From assembly GCA_964057225.1 (NCBI GenBank), contig OZ059900.1, positions 14,694,001-14,758,000 on the forward strand: a stretch of 64,000 bases of DNA, read 5' to 3'. Shown here piece after piece: positions 1 to 64,000 of this stretch. Every line of letters begins with the position of its first letter. Positions within the stretch are counted from its first letter, which is position 1. Under the pieces are notes generated by a model. That model saw only the letters and a program-made list of their open reading frames with translations. It searched no databases and was not told where the DNA came from. Origin of the DNA: Auanema rhodensis. Taxonomy: Eukaryota > Animalia > Nematoda. The translations under genes and the position numbers were made by a program.

Positions 1-403
1 TGACAGACGCGGATACTCACCACTATACTACCGAGGATTGAATTTGCACTTAGAAACTTTCATTAAGAGTGTGAGTTTGAATTAAAGTAGAAAAATGAAA
101 CACTGTCTCTAACATATCTTGATTTATGGCCTACTTTACCCAAAGAGCTAATTGAAGTTTGGTGTTACAATTAACGATTGATAAACGCTGACGTATCAAT
201 TTTTTTCATCGTAATTAAGATAGAACACTTAAATTAAATAGAAATGTTTGAAAATTTAAAAATAATCACAAGCTCAAATCACTTTTGAAAAAGCAGAAAG
301 TTTAAAACAATCTTTTTTCTAATAATTATCGTTTTTATCCGACTTTTTGAAGAAAACAAAAAAAGCATAACTTTCAATAACGATGAATCAGAACAAAAAC
401 ATT

Positions 404-475
404 CTCCCCGGCCGGGAATTGAACCCGGGTCTCGCATGTGACAGACGCGGATACTCACCACTATACTACCGAGGA
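404..475 (-). tRNA. tRNA-Asp: tRNA-Asp(GTC)
   Basis: Reverse complement of the 72-nt TCCTCGG...CTGTCAC...CCGGGGAG cloverleaf. Confidence 0.96.
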
Positions 476-2159
476 TTGAATTTGCACTTAGAAACTTTCA
501 TTAAGAGTGTGAGTTTGAATTAAAGTAGGAAAATGAAACACTGTCTCTAACATATCTTGTTTTATGGCCTACTTTACACAAAGAGCTAATTGAAGTTTGG
601 TGTTACAATTAACGATTGATAAACGCTGACGTATCAATTTTTTTCATCGTAATTAAGATAGAACACTTAAATTAAATAAAAATGTTTGAAAATTTAAAAA
701 AAATCACAAGCTCAAATCACTTTTGAAAAAGCAGAAAGTTTAAAACAATCTTTTTTCTAATAATTATCGTTTTTATCCGACTTTTTGAAGAAAACAAAAA
801 TAGCATAACATTCAATAACGATGAATCAGAACAAAAACATTCTCCCCGGCCGGGAATTGAACCCGGGTCTCGCATGTGACAGACGCGGATACTCACCACT
901 ATACTACCGAGGATTGAATTTGCACTTAGAAACTTTCATTAAGAGTGTGAGTTTGAATTAAAGTAGAAAAATGAAACACTGTCTCTAACATATCTTGATT
1001 TATGGCCTACTTTACTCAAAGAGCTAATTGAAGTTTGGTGTTACAATTAACGATTGATTAACGCTGACGTTTCAATTTTTTTCATCGTAATTAAGATAGA
1101 ACACTTAAATTATATAGAAATGTTTGAAAATTTAAAAAAAAATAACAAGCTCAAATCACTTTTGAAAAAGCAGAAAGTTTAAAACAATCTTTTTTCTAGT
1201 AATTATCGTTTTTATCCGACTTTTTGAAGAAAACAAAAATAGCATAACATTCAATAACGATGAATCAGAACAAAAACATTCTCCCCGGCCGGGAATTGAA
1301 CCCGGGTCTCGCATGTGACAGACGCGGATACTCACCACTATACTACCGAGGATTGAATTTGCACTCAGAAACTTTCATTAAGAGTGTGAGTTTGAATTAA
1401 AGTAGAAAAATGAAACACTTTCTCTAACATATCTTGATTTATGGCCTACTTTACTCAAAGAGCTAATTGAAGTTTGGTGTTAAAATGAACAATTGATTAA
1501 CGCTGACGTTCCGTTTTTTTTTCATCGTAATTGAGATAGAACATTTAAATTAAATGGAAATGTTTAAAAATTTAGAAAAAAAACACAAGCTCAAACCACT
1601 TTTGAAAAAGCAGAAAGTTTAAAACAATCTTTTTTCTAATAATGATCGTCTTTATCCGATTTTTGGAAAAAAACAAAAATAGCATAACATTCAATAACGA
1701 TGAATCAGAACAAAAACATTCTCCCCGGCCGGGAATTGAACCCGGGTCTCGCATGTGACAGACGCGGATACTCACCACTATACTACCGAGGATTGAATTT
1801 GCACTTAGAAACTTTCATTAAGAGTGTGAGTTTGAATTAAAGTAGAAAAATGAAACACTGTCTCTAACATATCTTGATTTATGGCCTACTTTACTCAAAG
1901 AGCTAATTGAAGTTTGGTGTTACAATTAACGATTGATAAACGCTGACGTATCAATTTTTTTCATCGTAATTAAGATAGAACACTTAAATTAAATAGAAAT
2001 GTTTGAAAATTTAAAAAAAAATCACAAGCTCAAACCACTTTTGAAAAAGCAGAAAGTTTAAAACAATCTTTTTTCTAATAATGATCGTCTTTATCCGACT
2101 TTTTGAAGAAAACAAAAATAGCATAACATTCAATAACGATGAATCAGAACAAAAACATT

Positions 2160-2231
2160 CTCCCCGGCCGGGAATTGAACCCGGGTCTCGCATGTGACAG
2201 ACGCGGATACTCACCACTATACTACCGAGGA
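2160..2231 (-). tRNA. tRNA-Asp: tRNA-Asp(GTC), array gene next to the Ty3/gypsy LTR
   Basis: Same 72-nt cloverleaf; its 5' end is 32 nt from the LTR start. Confidence 0.96.
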
Positions 2232-2263
2232 TTGAATTTGCACTTAGAAACTTTCATTAAGAG

Positions 2264-2621
2264 CGTTCCATTCGAATGATCAATGCATTACATTCATATG
2301 ACGAAGCTGTAGCAGGCGGGTTAGAGTCAGAGAATGCGAGACTGAGAGAAGACGACCCGCCCTTTTCCATATTACAACACTTCAGCTTTGCCTCAGGGAC
2401 GATCATGGATGGTTGGTCGTTCTCTCTCTGTTCTCTATTAGTTTAACCTTTACTTAGTTATATGTATCTTATTGTAATCACGTAGATATAATAAACCAAT
2501 CTTTCTCGAGTCTTATGTTTATCCTTATGCTCCATGTTTAACCGCTACATCTGGAATACTACCACGCTCATCTTGTAGACTCCATTGGTCTGTAAGATCG
2601 ACGCGGGAGCATAACGGAACG
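2264..2621 (+). repeat. 5' LTR (358 bp), termini CGTTCC...GGAACG
   Basis: Starts where array similarity ends; first 34 bp recur right after the PPT; terminal inverted repeat CGTTCCATT/AACGGAACG (8/9); AATAAA at 2490-2495; abuts the PBS. Confidence 0.85.
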
Positions 2622-2634
2622 TGGAGGTTCCACC
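2622..2634 (+). promoter_or_regulatory. Primer-binding site, tRNA-Gln
   Basis: TGGAGGTTCCACC is the complement of the metazoan tRNA-Gln 3' end ...GGTGGAACCT-CCA (tRNA sequence recalled from memory). Confidence 0.85.
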
Positions 2635-4131
2635 TCGAACTTATCACAATTTTTTTTTCTTCCTTCTCTCTAATGTTTGTGTTGTTAATTTATTTTCAAA
2701 TCTCTTTCATCTCTTTTTTTCTCATACCATCTACTCTATGTCTTAACACAATACGGAGGGGCCAACAACGTTAAATGGGAACAGAGGCAAGGAATCCTTT
2801 TTTTTTAAAGAAGGATTATACGTTTCGAGATTATTATTTTCCCGTTTGTTCACAAAAATTCTTTCGTCTGAACCTTTAAATTTCGTATCCTTGCTTATAA
2901 CATCTGAAATGCTCTGTTACCCAACCTTGAAGCTTGATGAGGGCTTTAGGCTGAATTAGTGAACAAATTCACCTAAAGTAATTGTTATTTTGTATTTCCC
3001 ACGCCTTCTCCTTTTTAAGGATTAATTTTGGCTTCAAGGAAAGTATAACTTCGGTTATATCTTTATATTTCGTGGATGAAGTTTGTTTTGCGAATCAGGA
3101 CTATTTTATTTTGCGTTACGATTTCGTTCAGACAAATTTTGCTTCTAACATCCTAAATTTATAATCAGTACGCATGAAAAAAATTACACGGGAAACCTCA
3201 CCAAAAAGGGAGGATTGTTAATTTATAGATCGCTATAGTCCGAAAAATCCTGTTGAAAAATGTTATCTCGAATTTGAATCATGATTAACACAGGTCGTGT
3301 TGGCTAAAGCATATCGGTTTGGATTTTCTCCCCTTACTGAATGTCACCTTCCTCATACCGTTATTGTTGTTCAGAAGCATAAGACTCACGCATTGAACCT
3401 TATTCCAACATTAATACTAGTTCTTGTAATATTTAGCCATTTAACTCTGCTTTTATTTCAAAATTCGATTTCTGATCACGAAATACCTACATTCATCATT
3501 GCGAAACGCTCTTTTGTAAAACTAATATTACGAATCCCATGACTTTTGTTACAACGAAACATGCGAGCTAGACCAAACGTATTTGAAAACCAGATTGTAA
3601 AGAAACAAAAATTATTTTTGGTCACAAAAGAGAAATTGGTGCACATTTATTGTTAAACTGCTCTTTTATCAAAAGCATGTTACGAATTACACCATAAGTT
3701 TTGTTGCAAGATGACACACCACATGGTCGAGAAACTAGTGTAACAAAACATAAGTTTAGTCAGCATGAGGAAAATGGTTGCATACAAATCAGTAAAATGT
3801 GCTGTAATTGAACGAATATTACGAATTACACTAAACGTTTTGTAAAATAACAGCTTGGTCACCCCAGATGTTTTGTGAATCAGATTTTCAACTACAGAGA
3901 AAATACGGAGAGCACCAGAGTCCCGATATCACAGAGTAGAAGGCGGATCCATCGCCATTGGCCAAGGCATCGACCTCATTCTCACAAGTTGTCGATACGA
4001 CACCGGTCGCTCTCCAAAGCCCTTCTCATTTTGCCTACATCCTCATCCTTATTCACCGCATTCTTTAACGTCTCAACATCCCACACGTTACCAAGCACTC
4101 AAGGTTTTTTCAAACCAAGAGTTCTAGCAAG

Positions 4132-5706
4132 GTGGCTAAGAGATTCCATTCAGCCGTACCTATAAGTACGCATTTCGATTCCCAAGACTCAGCTCCCTTT
4201 ACCAGAAGTCGAGCTCGAGCTCAAGACGTCGCTATATTAGAAGAGGAGCAGAAAGTCGACAAGAAGCCGGATAATTTCCTTATTCCTACTACTGATTCTG
4301 TCTCACCTACTGAACAACTAGGCGACCCGGACTACGTACCTACTATAGAAGAAGAACTATCAATCATTGTGGAGGAACAAACACCGATCACTCCTAAAAA
4401 GGTACGCTCCTCTAATTCTAATAAAAATAAGAAAAATCAAAACATCAGCGACGCTTCTCAGTCTCTCTCACTAACCGAACCAACCGATTCCCCTTTACTT
4501 TCAAAAACTTCTAGCGCGGGCGGGCTTAGTTCTCTTAGAAACATTGTTACTGATCTTTTTAACCTTTCGCCTAAAGATAAAACTTTCAACACCAAGCGCA
4601 AAAGCAGATATTCATCAGTCCCTAACATTAATATCTCACCAATTCAACCACCTGCGCTAAATACCAGTATTCATCAAACTTCTACTCCCATCTTAACAAC
4701 AACAGACTCACTTCCTAAGGCACCCAATAGACCTATTCCATCCACGCAAACAACCCCTATTTTGGAGACCCCACCAATAACAGGTAGAACGATCAAAATA
4801 CCATCTACCCGTACAAATAACATCATGACGGAAGCTGTTTCCTCACTACCTGGGGCAGGGAAAACAACAATCGCGCAAGCCTTACTTTGGCCTTACTGTC
4901 CAACTTACGACGGCAGTCGTAACTTCCGTGATTTTACGGGTAAATTCAACTTGTTTGCTAATGCCATTGGCCTTGTTATCCCTAAAAGGTTAGCACTTCT
5001 TCCTTTGCTTCTCAAAAATGAAGCAGCAGAAGAAGCTTACAGACAAGTTCCTGAACAACTTAAAACAACTGGTTCGTGGAATGATCTGATTAGAGCACTA
5101 ACATCGAAGCTCTGCCCTGAATATAACCAAGACCCTGCACTTATTAACCTTCAAAACACCACGCAAGGGGAATTGACAATTGATGCATACGCCCAAGCAT
5201 TAAGAACAATGGCATTGAGTGCATTTGCATCTGATGACCCACATAAAGATCAAATACTGAGATCAACATTCCTCAGAGGACTTAAAAATTCTCTAAAACC
5301 AGCTGTGATCCGAGCAAAGCCAAAATCCTTCACAGAAGCGATTGAAGCAGCTCGCTGGGAGGAATCGATAGTGAACCAAACAACAGACACGCAATCGATG
5401 TTGGTCAACGCTGTGAACAAAGCACTAGCACCCTTTGCGCGTAATGATGAGAGACGAGATAGCCAAACATTTAATCGCAATTATCAACGCGATAACCAAA
5501 TGATAAGAAACAATCAAAATTATCAAAATTATCAAAATTATCAAAAAAATAAAAACTTTTCTAATTTCAATAATAATCGAAACCGTTACGGTTCTTTCGC
5601 TAATAATAATCGCCGTACAAATTATAACGAACAAGATAATAGGCAATCGAGTTCTGATTGGCATCAAAGAAATTATAATTTTCGTCATAACAACCAACGA
5701 GGTTGA
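4132..5706 (+). CDS. gag: Gag region: S/T/P-rich N-terminal extension, retrotransposon capsid domain, N/Q/R-rich tail
   Basis: PTYDG...F..F start of capsid, QGELTIDAYAQAL (MHR-like), FLRGL...PKSFTEAIEAA..EE. True start is uncertain: GTG 4132, first internal ATG 4825. Confidence 0.85.
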   Translation: MAKRFHSAVPISTHFDSQDSAPFTRSRARAQDVAILEEEQKVDKKPDNFLIPTTDSVSPTEQLGDPDYVPTIEEELSIIVEEQTPITPKKVRSSNSNKNKKNQNISDASQSLSLTEPTDSPLLSKTSSAGGLSSLRNIVTDLFNLSPKDKTFNTKRKSRYSSVPNINISPIQPPALNTSIHQTSTPILTTTDSLPKAPNRPIPSTQTTPILETPPITGRTIKIPSTRTNNIMTEAVSSLPGAGKTTIAQALLWPYCPTYDGSRNFRDFTGKFNLFANAIGLVIPKRLALLPLLLKNEAAEEAYRQVPEQLKTTGSWNDLIRALTSKLCPEYNQDPALINLQNTTQGELTIDAYAQALRTMALSAFASDDPHKDQILRSTFLRGLKNSLKPAVIRAKPKSFTEAIEAARWEESIVNQTTDTQSMLVNAVNKALAPFARNDERRDSQTFNRNYQRDNQMIRNNQNYQNYQNYQKNKNFSNFNNNRNRYGSFANNNRRTNYNEQDNRQSSSDWHQRNYNFRHNNQRG

Positions 5707-5814
5707 TTCAATAACAACAACGGACAAAGAAGAGTTCAATTCAAAAATCCAAGAGACAACTCAAGAGGAAGAGATAGAAGCTCAACAAGAATAAACTCTG
5801 TCACTCTTTCGCCT

Positions 5815-8800
5815 TTGACGCTCACAGTTATCATGGCAATAACAGCAGCAATATTCTTGCCCTGTGCATCTACATATCAAATCTGTACAAGAGCAACAGG
5901 AGGCGCATTACTTATGCCACCAACAATCAGAAAATGCAGATTAACAGAGAAAAACCATGTGCTACGTACAGAAGTTCATCTGTACACAAGAAATCACACA
6001 GCACACGAATGGGATGCGTGGCGTTGTTCAGAGGAAGTACACAAGTTATGCGTACGAGACCTGCTATTCCTGCGCGATACGAACAGAACAATAAATAGAA
6101 TACAGCTTATAGGAGAGCGCGAGTGCAGACAGGCAATCCGCGATCGCAAGTGGAATGACATAGAACTGCAACGCATTGATAGTATCACCCAAGCAACTCC
6201 GGAGCCCTCCTATGACCCAGCGCGCGCGTTCAACCGCGACGCGTGCGAGGAGCGGTCACGTCTAATATTAGAGCGCGGAGTCATGACCCGTATGCCTGAC
6301 GATACAATATTGTCAAACTTAATATTAAACACGGAAGGATGCAATGCACATCATGGTAATTGTGAATCAAGTACATCAATAATAATATGGGACCCACAAA
6401 CCACTGCTTCACGTTGTAATTACATCGATATGCATACATATGACGCTATCATTAGTCAAGATACTATTTTAATCCCTAGTACACAATCGGCACTTATTCT
6501 TTCGAGCAAACCAACTCCGAAACCTATTTCTTCTTGCTTCAGGCAGCCAGCGTTCCATACGACATCAGGAAATTATATCATTCTTCCTAAATTTCCAAAC
6601 GACAACAATATAACCACCCTTATTGAAAGAGAGTTCAAAAAGCTGCCGTTTAAAAGACCAAAACGTGCAGTCACCGAAGGATGTTCTTTCCCACTGGATC
6701 AAGATCGGATCAACGAAGTTGAAGATTATGAAACAGTATTGCTTCACGTCTGTCCATATACTTTCCTAAGACCATTAATGAGTAATCCCGGTATTACTTC
6801 AATTATTCCTATAATCAAAGGAAGACGTTTAGTAGATCCAACATACTCTCTAAAGGCATGGATAACATCACATAAAGAAAAATTCGAATTTTTCTTCAGA
6901 ATTCAAATAAATGAACATTCTGTTCGACATTTTCTCAAGTAATACGATTTCAGTGATAAAGAAGAAGCTCTGCTATATTATATAGCACAAAGAGAATTAG
7001 CCATTACTACAAAGGCAGCAATATCATACTTAGCATCTGAACAGCTTCTCGAACAAATATCAGATCGTTTGACAGTAATCGAATTCGATGAAATCATAAG
7101 GAAGAAAGAAGGTTCATATCGCGAACGAATTGAAAGCATAGCTCTCAATTTAACCAATACACCAGTTATAATTGAAGAAGGATTGACAGTTCCATCACGA
7201 CAAGAAGTCCTACAAACGTTCATACAAATGCCACCAATAAGGAAACGTATACTAACTGACGAGGAAGAGAAGAAAAGCGAATTCATTAAAGCAACGATCA
7301 ATTTACTAAGAGAACTAAAAACCCTCACAACAGTACGATGGAATAAAACTGCAGCATTTATTGATGACAGAAAATTTATAAAATTGCCAGCATCACGACA
7401 ATTCATGCCAAATACAGATAAACTATTTTATGACAGGAAGAATAATTATGGAATACCGATCGGTCCACACCCTAAGCTGATCAAGCCCAGCAATCTTTCA
7501 AAGAAATTATTATTGGAAATATTTTTACCCCTGCTCAATAATGTAAAAACACCTTATACATCGAGTAGGATAACACAAGAACAACTTCAAATCTTAATGG
7601 CAGAGAAAAATGAAACAAATTTTCGGCAAATCGCAACGCTGACATCCAGCGTCGCGGCAGGCGGCGCGGCTAGCGGCGCGGTTGTGACACCAGTCCAACC
7701 TTTGATCGAACGGAAGGGAACAATCCAATCAGTTACCACAATATAGCCGCAAATAACGAACAATCCTCACACAAATGCAACAACCACCACAAGAGCACCA
7801 TCATGGAGGCAACAGCCATCAACAACGGCGCCTCACACGACCGCTGCGACAACAGCACGCACAACAACATCAACCGCTCGTTCGCCAACAACAACGAGAA
7901 GCTATGCCATATACAAAGACGCACAGATTCCAAAAATACAAGAGACAACCGAAGCCTCTCCAACATTGATTCGAAAAAACCGAGCTTCCTCAACACCATC
8001 AGTAGAAACCTCAAATTCAGTGGAAGCAAATGCGAGATACATAGCAACGAAAATTGACTCGGTACAAGAGTTTCGTCAAAATATATCGAACAAAATAGCC
8101 CAAGATCATTTACAGTATGCTACTACAATGATCCAAGAGGAATTGCAGAAACATTTTGAAGAATCATACGAATCGATTTGCGAGATACAAAATCGGTATC
8201 TGGAATTATGGAAATCAATTCTACAAATTGAACCAACAATCGCAATGCGAACAATACTGGGAAGAGAAGATATAGCCGCACGGTTTGTAGGCAATGAAAT
8301 TTTGCATATACATGTATGCCCTACAGTGCTAGAGAAAACCATTTATCACAATCACACCGTAAATGGCACATGCTATCTCGAAACCCCAGTCTGGACACAA
8401 GACGGACAGTTACTGTTTGCAGCACCCGGATCCAAGGATCTTTTACCTCATGGTAAAGAAATAAGCTGTGATCACGTACCAACAGATATCTGGTCTAGCG
8501 AAGGTGAATGGAAAGGAATTAATGGGACTGCAAACGTCAATCTTGTATCAATGTGGGACGGACTTCATCACGAAAAAATAACACCATTAAAATTTACCGG
8601 AGCTCACTTATACACTAATTTATCGTCTCGTGTATACTCAATGACCACAGCCATAGCTTACGGTGCGAGTTTAGCATCGATTCGTCAGAATCACGTTCTT
8701 CACACAATTCACAATGATCCAAAGATATCAGCTACATTCAGTGTACTAAAGAAAAGTAGCGACTACATATCGAAAGCTCAAGAATTCACCAAGAGCACAT

Positions 8801-8988
8801 GGAAGTCATTCATCGATACAATTGCAGGAACGATTGAGCGAACACTAATAACTATCGGTGCAATTACATTATTTACCATCATACTCTTTGTGATAGGTTT
8901 CATTGTAAAGATCTATTTCTTCAAACCAGTAGGCATACCAGTTATGCATATTGCACTCAAAGATCACGACAGTGATCTACCAACATAC
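5815..8988 (+). pseudogene. env: Envelope glycoprotein, herpesvirus gB-like class III fusogen, interrupted by TAA 6940-6942 and TAG 7744-7746
   Basis: Signal peptide LTLTVIMAITAAIFLPCAST/YQIC; Cys-rich N-half with NxT/S sequons; RPKR furin site 6655-6666; gB-like core LQY..CEIQN..LW..EP...AARFVGN....C...CY..PV (8107-8469); TM helix 8842-8907. All segments are in one frame. Confidence 0.8.
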
Positions 8989-9129
8989 GAAGAAACTTTG
9001 GAATTAGTTAGTCATCCGGACCAACCGATTCCAAGACACATAATGAAACAATACTATCCATCAATGCTCGCATTCATACCAATCGCACTACCATTAGTTT
9101 GCTCGATTTCCAAAAAGAAAGATCAAGCG

Positions 9130-9510
9130 CTACCACTTCTATGGATGACTGTTAACAATAGACTGATCCTAACTTTATGGGACTCAGGTTCGTCCGTCAG
9201 TTACATAAGAATATCGACACTACACTACTTAGCTTTGAATGACTTTGTTAAGAAGAATACATCAAGAGCAACAACAGCGAACGGATCAGAATTTGTATTC
9301 ATTGGTACTATCGACTTAACCGTCGAAATAGCCGGTTACGAAATCGACCACACATTCTTCATATCAGACGACAAAGACTGTCCATCGCCAGCGTTGATTG
9401 GATTAGGTTTCATGAAAACACTTGACTGTCAAAACATTGGCATGAAACTAAGACCATACAAAAGAACACTGGAAATTGGAAATCATGTAGTACCTTTGGC
9501 TAGCGGAATT
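9130..9510 (+). CDS. pro: Retropepsin aspartic protease domain, in frame directly after the Env TM/tail (part of ORF 7966-9681)
   Basis: LWDSGSSVSYI (DSG at 9181-9189), TANG flap, ALIGLGFM. Boundaries approximate. Confidence 0.9.
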
Positions 9511-9891
9511 AACGGGGATATCAACAGGATATCAAAAACTGTTAATTTGATAACCTTGGAACCGCGGAGTCTACTTCCACGACAAGTTTTTAATTTCCAA
9601 GTCCAATTAGAGAACCCAATCGGAGAAGACTTAACCGCTATGATTAAACCAAACGACAATACACCTCTCTCACCTCGATAAGACACAGCATTTCGCGATG
9701 TTAACTCCATCAATATTCAATTCCGGAACAATTCTAAAGAATTCATAGAAATACCGGCCGGCACTGTAATTGCAGAAGCCGAAATAGGATCTATACCGGA
9801 CTATGAAATCTTCTCAACAGAACAACAGTACGACTATATTCCACCAGAAGCAGACTGGGAAGGCAAATTACCTCACTTCCCTGGTGATTTC

Positions 9892-12828
9892 ATGAAAGAA
9901 CTTGACCTAAAAGAGGCTGATCTCACGCAACGACAAAAAGACGAACTACGAAACATCATTCGTCAACGTAAGAAGGCATTCCTCAATGAAGATAAAAAGA
10001 TAGGATTGTTCAAAGGACCAGTAGAACACAAGATACCACTACGAACGGATATGGATATGCCAAAGCCACGAATTTCACGTATACCTCTCGGGAAAAAGGA
10101 AGAGGTAGAAAGACAAGTCCAAGAAATGCTCGAGCAAGGGATAATAGAACGATCGACATCTTTGTTCAACAGCCCTGTCGTTCTCGTTAGGAAAAAAGAC
10201 GAAACATTCCGTTTCGTTACGGATTTCCGAGCCTTAAATAACGTTACAAGAAAACAAACATATGTGATTCCTAACATCTCTGATATCATTGACTTAGCGG
10301 CTGGATCACAATACTTTTCTAATTTTGATCTTGTTTCTGGCTTTTTCCAAATACCATTATCGAAGAAGGATAGACCACTCACATTCTTTACCACCAATAG
10401 TGGGACTTATCAATACAGGAGAATGCCTATGGGATTATGTGGTGCGCCACATACCTTTCAAACAGCCGTGAGATATCTCCAAAGTAAATGTAAATGCCGA
10501 CTATTTGTCTATTTGGACGATTTACTAGTCATATCAGACAGCGCAGAACAACACCTCGAAGACATCAAAGAAGTATTACTCGCTGTAGAAAGACTAGGAT
10601 TTAAGATTAAACTCAAGAAATGTTCATTTGCAAGACCAGAAGTGAAATTTCTCGGACTCATTGTCGGAAGAGACGGAGTTAAGCCCGATCAACAGAAAGT
10701 TTCCGCCATCCGCGATTACCCTGCTCCTCAAACACCCACAGGAGTAAGAGCATTCTTAGGAATGGTCGGATTCTTTAGAAAATTTATTAAAGATTTTGCA
10801 CATATAGCAAGTCCGCTGTATGACCTTACTAAGCTAGACGCAGACTTCAATTGGACTAGCGAATGTCAACGTTCACTAGATAAGCTAAAGGAACGACTAA
10901 TCGAAGCACCGGTATTGAAACCACCACGATCAGACCGAACTTTCATCATTGAAAGTGATGGCAGCAACATCGCCATAGGCGCAGTATTACTGCAGCCCGA
11001 AGATCCAAACGAACCATTCAAGAACTTACATCCAATTGCTTTCGCAAGTAGGAAATTAGTAAAAGCAGAACGTAACTATGCTCCCATAGAGATAGAAGCC
11101 TTAGGCATAGTTTACACTCTAGCACAGTTTCGAACATACATACTTGGATCACATTCAATTTGCATCACCGATCATCGCCCATTGACAAGCTTACTAACTA
11201 GAAGAGACCTATTTGGAAGACTAGCAAAGTTCCAATTGGTCATACAGGAATACGATATTGAGATCAAATATCGAGAAGGCAGATTAAACAAAGTCTGTGA
11301 CGCACTCTCTAGATACATTGGAGATGAAGCTAACGATCCAAAGACGTCGAACAAGAAACAAAAGACGAATTCGAAAGAGAAAATTGAGACACAACAAGTA
11401 AATGTTGTGAAGTTACCAGAATTCAGCTCAATCCAACAAAATACTCCTTGGATCAAGAGAACAATAGCTGAGATTGAATACAGAACGAAGAAAAATATGA
11501 TTCAAAATGATCGTTATTGTGTTATAAACAACTTACTCTACACAAAACCAAGCGTCAAAAGACCTCATCCAGCGTTAATATTGCCATCGGATAGTGATAT
11601 AATTAACAAAATCATTGAAGAATTTCATGAAGACCCAACAATCGGGGCGCATCAAGGAATCAACAAAACAAAAGAAGCCATATTACGAAGATTTTCCTGG
11701 ACTAACATGCAGAACGACATAGCAAAATACGTAAAACAGTGCATCAAATGTGCACAACGAAAGAAAGATCCTCATGCTATGACCGTACAACCAATGGGTC
11801 AATTTAACATACCAACAAAACCATTTGAGAGAATACATATGGATATCATGGGACCATTCCCAACATCAAAAAGGAACAACAGCTATGTCCTCACAATACA
11901 AGACTCTTTCTCCAAATGGGCTACAACTATCGCCATACCAACAATTGTTAGTGAAGTTGTCATTGATAGATTCCTCAGAAACTTTGTATATGTCTATGGA
12001 CCACCGAACCGCTTAATAACAGACCGCGGTTCCAACTTCCTATCAAGGAAATTTGAAGACATGTGCGAAAAACTCGGTATCAAACATGAATCAACACTCC
12101 CACATCAGAAGAATTCCAATGGACAAGTAGAAAGACTTCATAGAACGTTAGAAGAAGGACTCACACATTATCTCAACGAAGATGTCACTGATTGGGACAT
12201 GTTTTTGCCAAAAATTACCTTTGCATTGAACACCACAACGCATGCAACCACAGGAATATCACCATACGTTGTACTATTCGGGAAAGAAAGCCGTTTGAGA
12301 TTGGATAAAGATTTATACCCCGAAACAACTGAACCAAAGGAAATTTCAAAGGAGATTGAAAATATTGAGAAAATCCGAAGCAAACAGAAAACAATCATTC
12401 AAGAAAAATTGGAAAAGCATCAAGAATTAGCAAAAAAGAAACATGATGCTCGATTACGCACTCACGAAAGAGATATACAAGAAGGAGACTGCGTTATGTT
12501 AGCTGTGAAAATGCACAAGCCAGGACAAAAGCTTCGGAAAGCTTATGATGGACCATTTGAAGTTATTAATGTGAAGGGAAACATGGTTCAAATCAAAAAC
12601 CTTTTGGGAAAGATCCAAGACGTTCACAAGGACAATCTCAAATTATTTAATCGAGAAAAAGATGACGGAATCGCACATAAGCCCAGTACACGTACAGACA
12701 GCTCAGACGATGACAGCGATATCGAAATCATAGAGGTTATCAACGGAAACAACAACGATGAAGACTCTTATGACGAACCAGAAGACCTTTCGGATACAAA
12801 TTGGCTACCATCAAGAAAAAACCATTAA
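9892..12828 (+). CDS. pol: Pol: reverse transcriptase, RNase H, integrase with acidic tail
   Basis: SPVVLVRKKD..RFVTDFR.LN, DL.SGFFQI, MPMGL, YLDD (10510-10521); SDGS..AIGAVL, E.EALG, TDHRPL; H..H..CxxC, HMDIMGP, TDRGSNF, NGQVER, YDGPF. Confidence 0.97.
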   Translation: MKELDLKEADLTQRQKDELRNIIRQRKKAFLNEDKKIGLFKGPVEHKIPLRTDMDMPKPRISRIPLGKKEEVERQVQEMLEQGIIERSTSLFNSPVVLVRKKDETFRFVTDFRALNNVTRKQTYVIPNISDIIDLAAGSQYFSNFDLVSGFFQIPLSKKDRPLTFFTTNSGTYQYRRMPMGLCGAPHTFQTAVRYLQSKCKCRLFVYLDDLLVISDSAEQHLEDIKEVLLAVERLGFKIKLKKCSFARPEVKFLGLIVGRDGVKPDQQKVSAIRDYPAPQTPTGVRAFLGMVGFFRKFIKDFAHIASPLYDLTKLDADFNWTSECQRSLDKLKERLIEAPVLKPPRSDRTFIIESDGSNIAIGAVLLQPEDPNEPFKNLHPIAFASRKLVKAERNYAPIEIEALGIVYTLAQFRTYILGSHSICITDHRPLTSLLTRRDLFGRLAKFQLVIQEYDIEIKYREGRLNKVCDALSRYIGDEANDPKTSNKKQKTNSKEKIETQQVNVVKLPEFSSIQQNTPWIKRTIAEIEYRTKKNMIQNDRYCVINNLLYTKPSVKRPHPALILPSDSDIINKIIEEFHEDPTIGAHQGINKTKEAILRRFSWTNMQNDIAKYVKQCIKCAQRKKDPHAMTVQPMGQFNIPTKPFERIHMDIMGPFPTSKRNNSYVLTIQDSFSKWATTIAIPTIVSEVVIDRFLRNFVYVYGPPNRLITDRGSNFLSRKFEDMCEKLGIKHESTLPHQKNSNGQVERLHRTLEEGLTHYLNEDVTDWDMFLPKITFALNTTTHATTGISPYVVLFGKESRLRLDKDLYPETTEPKEISKEIENIEKIRSKQKTIIQEKLEKHQELAKKKHDARLRTHERDIQEGDCVMLAVKMHKPGQKLRKAYDGPFEVINVKGNMVQIKNLLGKIQDVHKDNLKLFNREKDDGIAHKPSTRTDSSDDDSDIEIIEVINGNNNDEDSYDEPEDLSDTNWLPSRKNH

Positions 12829-13483
12829 CTCATGAGATTTTATTGTAAATTGTTTTGTAATAACTTTCTTTAAAGTAATACTAGAACACAAATTTTGTAA
12901 CGAGTCCTCTAAAACAAGTCACTCTTAAGTCAAAAAGTAAACTAGAGCATAATGAACACGGGAAATGTGAGAAGATAATTCTTTATCATATAGTTCGAAC
13001 CTTCCTAATTTCAACTAACTTCCCCATACTAGATGAGATGAAAAATGAAAGACATAGTTTGCAACAATATCTGAGCAACAGTCTTCACTTGAGTAATCAA
13101 TGACTCAATTTGGAAGTTATTTGGTATTACGCAAAACTTTTCTTTTTTTTTCTAAACTCACACAAATTGAAACAAACAACCGAGCTCTAGCAAAAAAATA
13201 GTTAACTTTTTGTCTACACTTGTTAGAGCGTTATGCTTAGAAACTTTTTTATTATTATTTTATAAGTATATTTTCGCCAATAAAACATAGTCTAGTATTC
13301 GTTAAAGAGGGTTAAAACTTTCATAATTTGGTTAAAAATTTTTTAATTCTTTTCAGATACTGATGTTTTATATTGTATTATGTTCATATTATAAGAATTT
13401 TACGTAAAATATTGTATTGTAACATGTACTTTAATACACACATTAACCCTTCTGCTACAGTTAATCAAGTCAAAACTTTTGAT

Positions 13484-13517
13484 TGTCGCGAGGACGCGAC
13501 ATAAACTCGAAAAAGGG
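13484..13517 (+). promoter_or_regulatory. Pre-PPT hairpin and polypurine tract
   Basis: TGTCGCG-AGGA-CGCGACA stem-loop (GAGGAC-type motif common before Ty3/gypsy PPTs), then GAAAAAGGG at 13509-13517, 2 nt before the 3' LTR start. Confidence 0.8.
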
Positions 13518-13519
13518 CA

Positions 13520-13559
13520 CGTTCCATTCGAATGATCAATGCATTACATTCATGGAACG
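13520..13559 (+). repeat. 3' LTR remnant (34 bp identical to 2264-2297, then GGAACG)
   Basis: CGTTCCATTCGAATGATCAATGCATTACATTCAT is a direct repeat of the 5' LTR start. Confidence 0.85.
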
Positions 13560-50496: not shown

Positions 50497-50528
50497 TGTC
50501 GCGATAAGCGAGTAGGTTTTGTTTTTGT

Positions 50529-50583
<55 letters not shown>

Positions 50584-50835
50584 ATCTCTCTTTATCTCCT
50601 TCCTTTGTAACTAGATCAAAACACATATGCATAACATATGTGTTAACATGTGGCATAAGTAACAGTTTATTTCAGACGACCGCCCAACAACGGAGGACAG
50701 TCTTACATTTTCTACGTTCGCAGTCAGTGATTTTATTCCGTGCTTGTCTTGTTAATTCATCAATAAACCCTTTTCTACATATTTACTTTGTGTTTTACTT
50801 CCAACCATACTATACACTTGTGGTATAACGCCACA
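50497..50835 (+). repeat. LTR (~339 bp), TG...CA
   Basis: Starts TGT at the array break and ends ACA 3 nt before the PBS; contains a polyA signal and a (TC)n tract. Confidence 0.7.
50531..50591 (+). repeat. (TC)n microsatellite inside the LTR
   Basis: More than 20 TC units with occasional TA interruptions. Confidence 0.95.
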
Positions 50836-50838
50836 AAT

Positions 50839-50850
50839 TGGTGCATCGGC
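50839..50850 (+). promoter_or_regulatory. Primer-binding site, tRNA-Gly
   Basis: TGGTGCATCGGC is complementary to the tRNA-Gly(GCC) 3' end ...GCCGATGCA-CCA (recalled). Confidence 0.75.
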
Positions 50851-51123
50851 TAGTTTAGATCTTAGCCGCTTTAAGTCCCGCGTGGCAGGTGAGATACAAC
50901 TCGAACCAAGCGTGTTTGAGCAAAAAACATACTTAATAAAAATCGTGGCGATCATAAGTCCACGTCAAGTCACACCAAACAGACTTGAACAATAAGCAAA
51001 CTCTGAAATTAGAAACAGAGGTTTCAATTTCCTTACGTTCACATATACTGTGATCACCAAACAAACAAAGAAAAAAGAAAACAAAAAAGGAATATAAGCA
51101 TTATTCCTACATCTACAACAAAA

Positions 51124-51606
51124 ATGTCACTCCTTTTTGTCAATCATATGAAACAATCTAACCAGTTTCTTGGAGAACTGCTTACACGATACGAGATGGA
51201 AGTGAAGGACCTTCTTGGTATTCTGGTAGATTGCGACTTCCACACTGAGGAAGAAGAGGAAACCCTCTCTTGCCTTATCATTTGCTGGACAAAAGTCCAA
51301 CACCAATTCAAAGAATCGTTGAAAAATCATCAAGATAACGAGAAAAAATTCCAAAAATTTCACGAAGCATCAGACAAAACGCTTCGTAAAGCATTAGACA
51401 AACAGTACATCGCCTTCACATCCGATGAAGACTTTGAACCCAACATTAAAAAGGTTCAAAACGCCATTATTGAGCTTGACGAACACATCATGAAAGCCGA
51501 ACGCATACTTAACAAAACCTACTCGCTTATCGCGACAACACTGTCTCTAACATATATTGATTTATGGCCTACTTTACTCAAAGAGCTAATTGGAGTTTGG
51601 TGTTAA
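51124..51606 (+). pseudogene. Truncated Gag-like N-terminus (129 codons) reading through into inverted LTR/array sequence
   Basis: AAAAATG start downstream of the PBS; charged, helical/coiled-coil composition; codons from 51511 on come from the inverted LTR fragment and array spacer. Confidence 0.6.
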
Positions 51607-57600: not shown

Positions 57601-57651
57601 ACCACTATACTACCGAGGATTGAATTTGCACTTAGAAACTTTCATTAAGAG
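51538..57651 (-). repeat. Tandem tRNA-Asp(GTC) array, minus strand, 14 genes
   Basis: Genes from 51844-51915 to 57548-57619 at ~439-bp period. Confidence 0.97.
57548..57619 (-). tRNA. tRNA-Asp: tRNA-Asp(GTC) next to the LTR of provirus copy 2
   Basis: Consensus 72-nt sequence, reverse complement. Confidence 0.96.
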
Positions 57652-59519
57652 CGTTCCATTCGAATGATCAATGCATTACATTCATATGACGAAGCTGTAG
57701 CAGGCGGGTTAGAGTCAGAGAATGCGAGACTGAGAGAAGACGACCCGCCCTTTTCCATATTACAACACTTCAGCTTTGCCTCAGGGACGATCATGGATGG
57801 TTGGTCGTTCTCTCTCTGTTCTCTATTAGTTTAACCTTTACTTAGTTATATGTATCTTATTGTAATCACGTAGATATAATAAACCAATCTTTCTCGAGTC
57901 TTATGTTTATCCTTATGCTCCATGTTTAACCGCTACATCTGGAATACTACCACGCTCATCTTGTAGACTCCATTGGTCTGTAAGATCGACGCGGGAGCAT
58001 AACGGAACGTGGAGGTTCCACCTCGAACTTATCACAATTTTTTTTTCTTCCTTCTCTCTAATGTTTGTGTTGTTAATTTATTTTCAAATCTCTTTCATCT
58101 CTTTTTTTCTCATACCATCTACTCTATGTCTTAACACAATACGGAGGGGCCAACAACGTTAAATGGGAACAGAGGCAAGGAATCCTTTTTTTTTAAAGAA
58201 GGATTATACGTTTCGAGATTATTATTTTCCCGTTTGTTCACAAAAATTCTTTCGTCTGAACCTTTAAATTTCGTATCCTTGCTTATAACATCTGAAATGC
58301 TCTGTTACCCAACCTTGAAGCTTGATGAGGGCTTTAGGCTGAATTAGTGAACAAATTCACCTAAAGTAATTGTTATTTTGTATTTCCCACGCCTTCTCCT
58401 TTTTAAGGATTAATTTTGGCTTCAAGGAAAGTATAACTTCGGTTATATCTTTATATTTCGTGGATGAAGTTTGTTTTGCGAATCAGGACTATTTTATTTT
58501 GCGTTACGATTTCGTTCAGACAAATTTTGCTTCTAACATCCTAAATTTATAATCAGTACGCATGAAAAAAATTACACGGGAAACCTCACCAAAAAGGGAG
58601 GATTGTTAATTTATAGATCGCTATAGTCCGAAAAATCCTGTTGAAAAATGTTATCTCGAATTTGAATCATGATTAACACAGGTCGTGTTGGCTAAAGCAT
58701 ATCGGTTTGGATTTTCTCCCCTTACTGAATGTCACCTTCCTCATACCGTTATTGTTGTTCAGAAGCATAAGACTCACGCATTGAACCTTATTCCAACATT
58801 AATACTAGTTCTTGTAATATTTAGCCATTTAACTCTGCTTTTATTTCAAAATTCGATTTCTGATCACGAAATACCTACATTCATCATTGCGAAACGCTCT
58901 TTTGTAAAACTAATATTACGAATCCCATGACTTTTGTTACAACGAAACATGCGAGCTAGACCAAACGTATTTGAAAACCAGATTGTAAAGAAACAAAAAT
59001 TATTTTTGGTCACAAAAGAGAAATTGGTGCACATTTATTGTTAAACTGCTCTTTTATCAAAAGCATGTTACGAATTACACCATAAGTTTTGTTGCAAGAT
59101 GACACACCACATGGTCGAGAAACTAGTGTAACAAAACATAAGTTTAGTCAGCATGAGGAAAATGGTTGCATACAAATCAGTAAAATGTGCTGTAATTGAA
59201 CGAATATTACGAATTACACTAAACGTTTTGTAAAATAACAGCTTGGTCACCCCAGATGTTTTGTGAATCAGATTTTCAACTACAGAGAAAATACGGAGAG
59301 CACCAGAGTCCCGATATCACAGAGTAGAAGGCGGATCCATCGCCATTGGCCAAGGCATCGACCTCATTCTCACAAGTTGTCGATACGACACCGGTCGCTC
59401 TCCAAAGCCCTTCTCATTTTGCCTACATCCTCATCCTTATTCACCGCATTCTTTAACGTCTCAACATCCCACACGTTACCAAGCACTCAAGGTTTTTTCA
59501 AACCAAGAGTTCTAGCAAG

Positions 59520-61094
59520 GTGGCTAAGAGATTCCATTCAGCCGTACCTATAAGTACGCATTTCGATTCCCAAGACTCAGCTCCCTTTACCAGAAGTCGA
59601 GCTCGAGCTCAAGACGTCGCTATATTAGAAGAGGAGCAGAAAGTCGACAAGAAGCCGGATAATTTCCTTATTCCTACTACTGATTCTGTCTCACCTACTG
59701 AACAACTAGGCGACCCGGACTACGTACCTACTATAGAAGAAGAACTATCAATCATTGTGGAGGAACAAACACCGATCACTCCTAAAAAGGTACGCTCCTC
59801 TAATTCTAATAAAAATAAGAAAAATCAAAACATCAGCGACGCTTCTCAGTCTCTCTCACTAACCGAACCAACCGATTCCCCTTTACTTTCAAAAACTTCT
59901 AGCGCGGGCGGGCTTAGTTCTCTTAGAAACATTGTTACTGATCTTTTTAACCTTTCGCCTAAAGATAAAACTTTCAACACCAAGCGCAAAAGCAGATATT
60001 CATCAGTCCCTAACATTAATATCTCACCAATTCAACCACCTGCGCTAAATACCAGTATTCATCAAACTTCTACTCCCATCTTAACAACAACAGACTCACT
60101 TCCTAAGGCACCCAATAGACCTATTCCATCCACGCAAACAACCCCTATTTTGGAGACCCCACCAATAACAGGTAGAACGATCAAAATACCATCTACCCGT
60201 ACAAATAACATCATGACGGAAGCTGTTTCCTCACTACCTGGGGCAGGGAAAACAACAATCGCGCAAGCCTTACTTTGGCCTTACTGTCCAACTTACGACG
60301 GCAGTCGTAACTTCCGTGATTTTACGGGTAAATTCAACTTGTTTGCTAATGCCATTGGCCTTGTTATCCCTAAAAGGTTAGCACTTCTTCCTTTGCTTCT
60401 CAAAAATGAAGCAGCAGAAGAAGCTTACAGACAAGTTCCTGAACAACTTAAAACAACTGGTTCGTGGAATGATCTGATTAGAGCACTAACATCGAAGCTC
60501 TGCCCTGAATATAACCAAGACCCTGCACTTATTAACCTTCAAAACACCACGCAAGGGGAATTGACAATTGATGCATACGCCCAAGCATTAAGAACAATGG
60601 CATTGAGTGCATTTGCATCTGATGACCCACATAAAGATCAAATACTGAGATCAACATTCCTCAGAGGACTTAAAAATTCTCTAAAACCAGCTGTGATCCG
60701 AGCAAAGCCAAAATCCTTCACAGAAGCGATTGAAGCAGCTCGCTGGGAGGAATCGATAGTGAACCAAACAACAGACACGCAATCGATGTTGGTCAACGCT
60801 GTGAACAAAGCACTAGCACCCTTTGCGCGTAATGATGAGAGACGAGATAGCCAAACATTTAATCGCAATTATCAACGCGATAACCAAATGATAAGAAACA
60901 ATCAAAATTATCAAAATTATCAAAATTATCAAAAAAATAAAAACTTTTCTAATTTCAATAATAATCGAAACCGTTACGGTTCTTTCGCTAATAATAATCG
61001 CCGTACAAATTATAACGAACAAGATAATAGGCAATCGAGTTCTGATTGGCATCAAAGAAATTATAATTTTCGTCATAACAACCAACGAGGTTGA
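59520..61094 (+). CDS. gag: Gag region, copy 2
   Basis: Protein identical to 4132-5706. Confidence 0.85.
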   Translation: MAKRFHSAVPISTHFDSQDSAPFTRSRARAQDVAILEEEQKVDKKPDNFLIPTTDSVSPTEQLGDPDYVPTIEEELSIIVEEQTPITPKKVRSSNSNKNKKNQNISDASQSLSLTEPTDSPLLSKTSSAGGLSSLRNIVTDLFNLSPKDKTFNTKRKSRYSSVPNINISPIQPPALNTSIHQTSTPILTTTDSLPKAPNRPIPSTQTTPILETPPITGRTIKIPSTRTNNIMTEAVSSLPGAGKTTIAQALLWPYCPTYDGSRNFRDFTGKFNLFANAIGLVIPKRLALLPLLLKNEAAEEAYRQVPEQLKTTGSWNDLIRALTSKLCPEYNQDPALINLQNTTQGELTIDAYAQALRTMALSAFASDDPHKDQILRSTFLRGLKNSLKPAVIRAKPKSFTEAIEAARWEESIVNQTTDTQSMLVNAVNKALAPFARNDERRDSQTFNRNYQRDNQMIRNNQNYQNYQNYQKNKNFSNFNNNRNRYGSFANNNRRTNYNEQDNRQSSSDWHQRNYNFRHNNQRG

Positions 61095-61202
61095 TTCAAT
61101 AACAACAACGGACAAAGAAGAGTTCAATTCAAAAATCCAAGAGACAACTCAAGAGGAAGAGATAGAAGCTCAACAAGAATAAACTCTGTCACTCTTTCGC
61201 CT

Positions 61203-64000
61203 TTGACGCTCACAGTTATCATGGCAATAACAGCAGCAATATTCTTGCCCTGTGCATCTACATATCAAATCTGTACAAGAGCAACAGGAGGCGCATTACT
61301 TATGCCACCAACAATCAGAAAATGCAGATTAACAGAGAAAAACCATGTGCTACGTACAGAAGTTCATCTGTACACAAGAAATCACACAGCACACGAATGG
61401 GATGCGTGGCGTTGTTCAGAGGAAGTACACAAGTTATGCGTACGAGACCTGCTATTCCTGCGCGATACGAACAGAACAATAAATAGAATACAGCTTATAG
61501 GAGAGCGCGAGTGCAGACAGGCAATCCGCGATCGCAAGTGGAATGACATAGAACTGCAACGCATTGATAGTATCACCCAAGCAACTCCGGAGCCCTCCTA
61601 TGACCCAGCGCGCGCGTTCAACCGCGACGCGTGCGAGGAGCGGTCACGTCTAATATTAGAGCGCGGAGTCATGACCCGTATGCCTGACGATACAATATTG
61701 TCAAACTTAATATTAAACACGGAAGGATGCAATGCACATCATGGTAATTGTGAATCAAGTACATCAATAATAATATAGGACCCACAAACCACTGCTTCAC
61801 GTTGTAATTACATCGATATGCATACATATGACGCTATCATTAGTCAAGATACTATTTTAATCCCTAGTACACAATCGGCACTTATTCTTTCGAGCAAACC
61901 AACTCCGAAACCTATTTCTTCTTGCTTCAGGCAGCCAGCGTTCCATACGACATCAGGAAATTATATCATTCTTCCTAAATTTCCAAACGACAACAATATA
62001 ACCACCCTTATTGAAAGAGAGTTCAAAAAGCTGCCGTTTAAAAGACCAAAACGTGCAGTCACCGAAGGATGTTCTTTCCCACTGGATCAAGATCGGATCA
62101 ACGAAGTTGAAGATTATGAAACAGTATTGCTTCACGTCTGTCCATATACTTTCCTAAGACCATTAATGAGTAATCCCGGTATTACTTCAATTATTCCTAT
62201 AATCAAAGGAAGACGTTTAGTAGATCCAACATACTCTCTAAAGGCATGGATAACATCACATAAAGAAAAATTCGAATTTTTCTTCAGAATTCAAATAAAT
62301 GAACATTCTGTTCGACATTTTCTCAAGTAATACGATTTCAGTGATAAAGAAGAAGCTCTGCTATATTATATAGCACAAAGAGAATTAGCCATTACTACAA
62401 AGGCAGCAATATCATACTTAACATCTGAACAGCTTCTCGAACAAATATCAGATCGTTTGACAGTAATCGAATTCGATGAAATCATAAGGAAGAAAGAAGG
62501 TTCATATCGCGAACGAATTGAAAGCATAGCTCTCAATTTAACCAATACACCAGTTATAATTGAAGAAGGATTGACAGTTCCATCACGACAAGAAGTCCTA
62601 CAAACGTTCATACAAATGCCACCAATAAGGAAACGTATACTAACTGACGAGGAAGAGAAGAAAAGCGAATTCATTAAAGCAACGATCAATTTACTAAGAG
62701 AACTAAAAACCCTCACAACAGTACGATGGAATAAAACTGCAGCATTTATTGATGACAGAAAATTTATAAAATTGCCAGCATCACGACAATTCATGCCAAA
62801 TACAGATAAACTATTTTATGACAGGAAGAATAATTATGGAATACCGATCGGTCCACACCCTAAGCTGATCAAGCCCAGCAATCTTTCAAAGAAATTATTA
62901 TTGGAAATATTTTTACCCCTGCTCAATAATGTAAAAACACCTTATACATCGAGTAGGATAACACAAGAACAACTTCAAATCTTAATGGCAGAGAAAAATG
63001 AAACAAATTTTCGGCAAATCGCAACGCTGACATCCAGCGTCGCGGCAGGCGGCGCGGCTAGCGGCGCGGTTGTGACACCAGTCCAACCTTTGATCGAACG
63101 GAAGGGAACAATCCAATCAGTTACCACAATACAGCCGCAAATAACGAACAATCCTCACACAAATGCAACAACCACCACAAGAGCACCATCATGGAGGCAA
63201 CAGCCATCAACAACGGCGCCTCACACGACCGCTGCGACAACAGCACGCACAACAACATCAACCGCTCGTTCGCCAACAACAACGAGAAGCTATGCCATAT
63301 ACAAAGACGCACAGATTCCAAAAATACAAGAGACAACCGAAGCCTCTCCAACATTGATTCGAAAAAACCGAGCTTCCTCAACACCATCAGTAGAAACCTC
63401 AAATTCAGTGGAAGCAAATGCGAGATACATAGCAACGAAAATTGACTCGGTACAAGAGTTTCGTCAAAATATATCGAACAAAATAGCCCAAGATCATTTA
63501 CAGTATGCTACTACAATGATCCAAGAGGAATTGCAGAAACATTTTGAAGAATCATACGAATCGATTTGCGAGATACAAAATCGGTATCTGGAATTATGGA
63601 AATCAATTCTACAAATTGAACCAACAATCGCAATGCGAACAATACTGGGAAGAGAAGATATAGCCGCACGGTTTGTAGGCAATGAAATTTTGCATATACA
63701 TGTATGCCCTACAGTGCTAGAGAAAACCATTTATCACAATCACACCGTAAATGGCACATGCTATCTCGAAACCCCAGTCTGGACACAAGACGGACAGTTA
63801 CTGTTTGCAGCACCCGGATCCAAGGATCTTTTACCTCATGGTAAAGAAATAAGCTGTGATCACGTACCAACAGATATCTGGTCTAGCGAAGGTGAATGGA
63901 AAGGAATTAATGGGACTGCAAACGTCAATCTTGTATCAATGTGGGACGGACTTCATCACGAAAAAATAACACCATTAAAATTTACCGGAGCTCACTTATA
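61203..64000 (+). pseudogene. env: gB-like env, copy 2 (partial); stops at 61776-61778 and 62328-62330, then open to the window end
   Basis: TGG>TAG is unique to this copy; CAG at 63132 where copy 1 has TAG. Confidence 0.8.

Follow-up and report, generated by a model that had tools for sequence, protein, structure and literature searches.

A gB-like predicted fusion protein core between gag and protease of a broken Ty3/gypsy element from Auanema rhodensis, likely inherited with its Pol

It is very probable that the stretch at 8107-8469 of the Auanema rhodensis DNA analysed here (64,000 nucleotides, called the window throughout) encodes the core of a predicted fusion protein of class III, gB-like in character, which lies in frame between gag and the protease of a Ty3/gypsy LTR element and which likely descended with its Pol from a known GAG-ENV-POL lineage, rather than from a new capture. 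Both copies of the element in the window are broken. The features of the element are collected in Table 1.

Table 1. Features of the retroelement and its second copy, with positions counted from the first letter of the window
Feature	Position	Strand	Remarks
5' LTR	2264..2621	+	358 bp, ends CGTTCC...GGAACG
Primer-binding site, tRNA-Gln type	2622..2633	+	12-mer match to errantiviruses listed in PMC13524379
gag region	4069..5796	+	first in-frame ATG 4825; capsid domain about 5005-5388; stop 5704
Signal-like hydrophobic segment, internal	5797..5877	+	Kyte-Doolittle peak; predicted Env signal peptide
Env N-terminal half, predicted domains I-II (fusion-loop and PH-like part)	5872..6588	+	phmmer, alignment, model
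Long linker/insert, 483 residues	6589..8037	+	longest of 17 linkers
Furin-type site RPKR	6655..6666	+	sole R-x-[RK]-R within Env
Env core, long helix and beta-rich crown, predicted domains III-IV	8038..8571	+	encloses 8107-8469
Predicted Env transmembrane helix	8848..8904	+	hydropathy 2.66 over 19 residues
Aspartic protease	9145..9417	+	PF13975, PF13650; DSG at 9181; in frame behind Env tail
Reverse transcriptase and RNase H	10186..11253	+	PF00078 E 3e-31, PF17919, PF17917; YLDD at 10510
Integrase: zinc finger, core, SH3-like tail	11593..12828	+	PF17921, PF00665, weak PF24626; to frame end
Polypurine tract, then 3' LTR remnant	13509..13559	+	
Second element copy, cut by window end	57652..64000	+	3 differences in 6349 bp; shared upstream flank

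Sequence and structure matches of the envelope core

The peptide given in the first-pass annotation is the exact plus-strand translation of 8107-8469. A herpesvirus glycoprotein B signature had been read in it, and the gB-like, class III character of the stretch was borne out by Pfam, phmmer, Foldseek and Atlas. In Pfam, the family PF24664 (Monjiviricetes_fusion) matched at E 3.6e-11 and 42.2 bits, above its cut-off of 27, and PF00606 (Glycoprotein_B) at E 4e-10 and 40 bits, just under its cut-off of 43; the scores against PF00606 lie at 36-40 bits in the searches made, below this gathering score of 43 bits. The match of the stretch is far beyond chance. A phmmer search of PDB chains gave 50 sequences at E 10 or lower, of which 47 were herpes gB, the best at E 7e-4. 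In these alignments the cysteines at 8179 and 8317 line up with gB cysteines. All four cysteines of the stretch (8179, 8317, 8371 and 8467) are invariant in 19 of 19 rows of our Env alignment A2, where they are among seven invariant cysteines. Alignment A2 is alignment A1 minus P0080, P0097 and P0017, whose Env halves misaligned. Weak Pfam matches of Env to Ground-like, Macin, DUF1216 and MCM_OB were all under cut-off and were rejected.

An AlphaFold2 model of Env was built as a monomer on the 19 rows of A2 (mean pLDDT 59.2), a single-sequence model having been set aside (mean pLDDT 32.6). The N-terminal half reached pLDDT 72-94 over residues 51-310, mostly as beta structure, and a block at residues 801-940, corresponding to the reported stretch, reached 73-91 and consists of a long helix with beta strands after it. 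In the monomer model, domains I-II and III-IV are confident, whereas domain V and the overall packing are not. Foldseek gave significant gB/class III matches for the whole Env model (E 6e-12 in the PDB and 8e-15 in the viral structure library BFVD), a result by which the annotation had wished its claim to be judged. In the PDB, 117 matches had E<=1e-3, the best being VZV gB (5.9e-12), and all 36 of those listed were herpesvirus gB. In BFVD there were 194 matches, with Beihai rhabdo-like virus 3, Nyavirus and Keturi virus at the top and the first herpes gB at rank 6. The TM-scores are low, at most 0.21 for the PDB and at most 0.26 for the PDB and viral library together; the match is therefore one by domain and not by whole shape, and the global domain arrangement is not reproduced. 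From sequence and model, Env is predicted to be a class III fusion protein.

The word 'herpesvirus' in the original label proved too narrow, because the curated cut-off is passed for PF24664 and not for PF00606, and because the top predicted-structure matches are RNA-virus glycoproteins. The Atlas ranking for the Env core likewise places PF24664 clusters first (0.94) and the herpes gB cluster ninth (0.91). By profile and by model, the best viral matches are glycoproteins of negative-strand RNA viruses, not of herpesviruses. The PF24664 glycoproteins, from nyamiviruses, rhabdo-like and chu-like viruses, lead both the viral structure library and the Atlas, although they are stand-alone RNA-virus genes, unlike the window Env, and show 9-18% identity in structural alignments. 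Herpesvirus gB (VZV, HSV, PRV, HCMV, EBV, KSHV) has the core-helix motif and the two aligned cysteines in common with the window. However, the window is under the Pfam cut-off for that family, the identity is 8-12%, and the window Env is part of a polyprotein. Herpes gB requires gH/gL for fusion; no gene of gH/gL type was found within the element.

Organisation of the element

The Ty3/gypsy backbone proposed in the annotation holds, with the Pfam domains of Pol in the order protease-RT-RNase H-integrase. A single frame at 4069-12828 encodes gag-env-protease-RT-RNase H-integrase with no frameshift in 8.7 kb, and env stands in it between gag and pol. The frame contains four in-frame stops, at 5704, 6940, 7744 and 9679, the last of them after the protease. 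The gag region matches PF03732 (E 4e-6, 27.3 bits, above the cut-off of 24.1), a Ty3-type capsid, and also PF19259 (E 2e-5), under its cut-off. The LTR ends are CG...CG and not the usual TG...CA. Of the 3' LTR there remain 34 bp from the LTR start together with 6 bp identical to the LTR's final 6; this remnant abuts a tRNA-Asp array in the opposite orientation.

A hydrophobic segment similar to the one ahead of Env was present in 11 of 11 relatives examined. The Env N-terminal half has 10 family-conserved cysteines and phmmer matches in 14 relatives, and gave no match when searched alone against Pfam. Compared by eye, its ten cysteines resemble those of the Nematoda_C1 rows shown in PMC13524379. 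A furin site of the R-x-[RK]-R type lies within the linker of 11 of 17 proteins. By hydropathy only, the ectodomain lies between the signal segment and the transmembrane helix, as in nematode GAG-ENV-POL gB-type errantiviruses. Further downstream, at 9060-9105, the rhabditid relatives have a conserved hydrophobic segment some 25-35 residues ahead of the protease active site; it contains a proline that is invariant in alignment A2, and may serve as a second anchor in the membrane or as an element of a cleavage site. We considered a PPxY-like motif for budding in the Env tail as a family trait and rejected it, as it is found in 3 of 18 tails and in 11% of shuffled window tails.

From this anatomy, and from the way class III fusogens and LTR elements work, we infer how an open copy might function. 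It would give one polyprotein, the Gag part of which would remain in the cytosol. The internal hydrophobic segment would bring Env into the ER and be cut by signal peptidase, and the single transmembrane helix would bring the chain back to the cytosol, with protease, RT and integrase on the Gag side and tied to the membrane until freed by the element's own protease. Furin would cleave at RPKR, after domain II, and the Env trimer would fuse the membranes of particle and cell. The 483-residue linker would stay at the N-terminus of the membrane-anchored half, where its helical block, folded and borne on a glycosylated stalk rich in S/T/P, might form a shield on the surface or serve for attachment, outside the fusion core.

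Probable descent of Env with Pol

The Env core was the query in two word-indexed searches, where the Auanema protein P0003, 44% identical over the whole Env, was the sole find, and in a metagenome scan, which gave no relative. The other relatives come from a Pol search among long proteins, for which 120 of 228 matches were listed. Among those listed, the closest single-Pol matches (46-61% identity) are named as proteins of Caenorhabditis, Diploscapter and Ancylostoma and contain PF24664, PF00606 or both. Local profiles detected the Env core in 21 of 121 fetched relatives; in 19 of these it precedes Pol and in 2 it follows.

In an RT tree (FastTree, 118 rows, 4 of the 121 matches having been dropped as short), the window falls in a clade of 13 rows with support 100. 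All 12 other rows of this clade have the same Env ahead of Pol, and 10 of them are named as nematode proteins. Across 18 proteins, Env identities follow RT identities with a Spearman rho of 0.65, a value as high as this occurring in 0 of 5000 permutations. Small clades recur in both the Env and the RT trees, and P0007, which is nearest to the window by RT (62%), belongs to its nearest relatives by Env too (31%). The two trees conflict at one deep node, with weak support: P0034, P0035 and P0036 group with P0089, P0093 and P0112 by Env (87/98, not starred), and with the rhabditid group by RT (100/100). Because kin share both genes, the correlation of Env with RT shows joint descent and not co-evolution in a stronger sense.

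The known systems agree with this. According to Chary & Hayashi (eLife, PMC13524379), errantiviruses of nematodes, bryozoans and flatworms have only gB-type Env and the order GAG-ENV-POL; the paper credits Sacco et al. 2022 for the nematode GAG-ENV-POL elements, and its Supplementary file 1 holds 36 nematode elements, all typed ENV_HSV. The window element likewise has a Ty3/gypsy Pol, env between gag and pol, and a gB-type ectodomain. The tRNA-Gln 12-mer listed there for Clat_errantivirus_4 and Ctro_errantivirus_1 is the reverse complement of the window primer site, and the domain I-II row of Nematoda_Chromadorea_Clat_errantivirus_4 resembles that of the window by eye. There is no Auanema element among the 36 nematode rows of PMC13524379, where two Auanema genomes gave ENV-POL matches, and the elements of that paper are not among the rows of our RT tree. 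The protein P0003, from Auanema sp. JU1783, resembles the window in having the Gag end, Env, protease and the start of RT in one open frame and shares its helical linker block; it differs in having no stops, in being truncated within RT in its database record, and in its S/T/P-rich part.

A gB-like gene in a Ty3/gypsy backbone had been taken by the annotation to imply an independent capture or a module swap, and this is not supported, as Env travels with Pol throughout the RT clade. The possible donors would be a herpesvirus, a Maverick, a Tas-like BEL/Pao element or a chuvirus. The Env of Tas, from Ascaris, is a gB-like class III fusogen in a BEL/Pao element. Such fusogens occur also in nematode Mavericks (10.1101/2022.07.12.499685), where MFUS-1 is likewise a gB-like class III fusogen but on a DNA transposon, and in mosquito BEL/Pao elements (PMC13524379), and the family does contain the one deep Env/RT conflict described above. 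We nevertheless regard a capture or swap as very unlikely, given the identical placement of this Env in all 12 other clade rows, the position of P0007 close to the window by both genes, the correlated identities, and a structural identity to herpes gB of only 8-12%. This judgement covers descent within the sampled family; our trees are without Tas, Maverick and chuvirus sequences, and a very old shared origin lies outside their scope. Since gB-type Env in Ty3/gypsy elements is published and widespread, a gB-like Env does not in itself imply a new capture or swap, and in the sequences compared nothing points to a swap on the window's branch.

A long linker between the Env halves

Linker length was measured in the 17 proteins where both Env halves were found, and came to 9, 9, 21, 22, 65, 82, 86, 88, 148, 153, 154, 155, 243, 256, 376, 477 and 483 residues, the values for P0011 and P0034 being inflated by short profile matches. 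The two longest are those of Auanema P0003 (477) and the window (483); the Caenorhabditis relatives measured have 65-256 residues, all shorter than in the window. The window linker, which holds the stops at 6940 and 7744, consists of a predicted helical block at about 6790-7380, a low-confidence part and an S/T/P-rich stretch at 7747-8037 (45% S+T+P). No description of such a linker was found in the main text of PMC13524379 (its figures being outside our scope) or in literature searches, and an unusually long Env linker may be undescribed so far.

Perhaps one branch of the nematode gB-type retroelements acquired an additional folded domain in its fusion protein, at the furin loop. Such a loop, of 9 to 483 residues, would be an expansion site to which a helical attachment or shielding module was added on a mucin-like stalk, as a built-in accessory subunit. 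We put this forward tentatively, as a possibility with somewhat less than an even chance, and the shielding or attachment role is a guess drawn from composition and position. The first 190 or so residues after the furin site (residues 320-510) have 90 of 191 identities (47%) with Auanema P0003, ungapped, and keep a cysteine pair, compared with identities of 56% in domains I-II, 67% in the other Env half and 24% in the S/T/P part. These residues are not low-complexity (S+T+P 0.18), and AlphaFold2 predicts helix over residues 361-550.

The linker might instead be a spacer that surrounds the furin site, changes fast, is unstructured for the most part and has no function by itself, a reading that bears on the insert only and that we hold to be possible but doubtful. 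It would fit the smooth variation of length from 9 to 483 residues over the 17 proteins, several of which are plainly Thr-rich in this part. Pfam and Atlas searches gave no family for the linker, the best Atlas score of its Auanema counterpart being 0.84, under the lead threshold. The pLDDT never exceeds 67, with 44-67 over residues 361-550 and less than 40 over 611-770. Residues 320-510 are difficult to reconcile with a spacer, being 47% identical to Auanema without gaps and with the cysteine pair, against 24% for the S/T/P part, and being predicted helical and not low-complexity.

The Caenorhabditis elements P0020, P0022, P0025 and P0007 have a common helical block of their own after the furin site, P0007 scoring 13.6 bits against the profile of the other three and its shuffles at most 4.1. 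That block may be distantly related to the linker block of the window. The tie is weak, which would favour the spacer reading: hhalign gave a probability of 7.9% and 7.8 bits, where 200 shuffles of P0007 reached at most 3.0 and shuffles of other linkers reached 12.5.

State of the copies and of the family

Both window copies are interrupted by stops. They differ at 6389/61777, 7033/62421 and 7744/63132, and two of these three differences are a stop versus a sense codon, which is above the chance expectation (P 0.006-0.012, with small numbers). The upstream flanks of the two copies are identical at 2261 of 2263 bases, and the shared flank indicates that the second copy arose when the region was duplicated, not by another insertion.

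In sequencing runs from three studies (X1, X2 and X4), the dominant contigs diverge from the window by about 1% or less and differ from it at all four stop codons. The 3' LTR, a remnant here, continues in contigs of other runs; in one contig of run X1, 13252-13519 runs directly into LTR sequence as at a normal 3' LTR junction. Because the run contigs lack the stops and have a continuing LTR, the stops and the cut 3' LTR are to be seen as damage to the window copies. Short-read contigs pool copies, and what they show is the prevailing sequence rather than any single open copy. The elements of PMC13524379 are listed as intact, with uninterrupted frames and two LTRs, whereas the window copies are broken, the first having four stops and a cut 3' LTR; this concerns the copy and not the family. 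The family appears to be multi-copy and mostly stop-free in several public runs, and may therefore have moved recently. Near 13530, deep contigs of runs X1, X2, X4 and X8 agree with the LTR over no more than its first 11 bp before they return to LTR-like sequence, a pattern that points to a related LTR subfamily of greater abundance in these genomes. Run X12, an RNA run by guess, gave four short contigs with no bearing on expression.

Could the stops be programmed, with read-through setting the ratio of Gag, Env and Pol? The 8.7 kb without a frameshift, the first stop near the gag/env border and the excess of stop-versus-sense differences between the copies (P 0.006-0.012) would speak for it. 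However, two of the stops fall within the Env ectodomain, the copies do not carry the same set of stops, the relatives are open throughout, and the dominant contigs of three studies lack all four, so that we consider read-through extremely improbable and keep to damage as the preferred reading.

The element sits inside a tandem tRNA-Asp array of 439-bp units with one tRNA-Asp(GTC) gene each, at window 1-2263, 13556-50497 and 51537-57651; there are 103 of these genes in the window, 19 of them on the minus strand. The 5' LTR starts 32 bp upstream of an opposite-strand tRNA-Asp gene, a position like that of tRNA-targeted Ty3/gypsy elements, but one insertion site within a 439-bp repeat cannot demonstrate targeting of tRNA genes. 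The junction haplotype at the 3' end of the element occurs once among 98 array units. The direction of the array flips at this 3' end and again at 50497-51537. The piece there, 1041 bp long, has a terminal inverted repeat of 27 bp without a mismatch and contains a TC microsatellite, a motif at 50839 that resembles a primer site, and a frame of 197 codons that matches nothing in Pfam. For at least about 400 bp the array sequences flanking it mirror each other, and the piece may be the 5' end of another LTR element at a fold-back junction.

The second copy and the flips of the array might be artefacts of assembly, from fold-back or chimeric long reads, which would leave Env itself unaffected. 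Both flips coincide with ends of mobile elements, one of them being an almost perfect mirror, copy 2 matches copy 1 plus flank at 99.9%, and none of the contigs listed bridges the 13553 junction, those there continuing into LTR sequence. On the other hand, the copies differ at three coding positions, each with its own stop, 6 bp kept at the junction agree with the LTR end, as expected of an integration end, and rare junctions are dropped by short-read contigs. An artefact of this kind seems unlikely to us, and a real duplication of the region is preferred.

Implications

A gB-like Env in Ty3/gypsy elements is already in print, and the window adds one family to the known lineage, in agreement with the published view that Env and Pol travelled together. 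Only the long Env linker is left over as an odd feature beyond the known kind. If the linker block is a real domain, it would mark a place where class III fusogens tolerate large additions, and it would be a candidate for how worm retroelements pick cells or hide from them.
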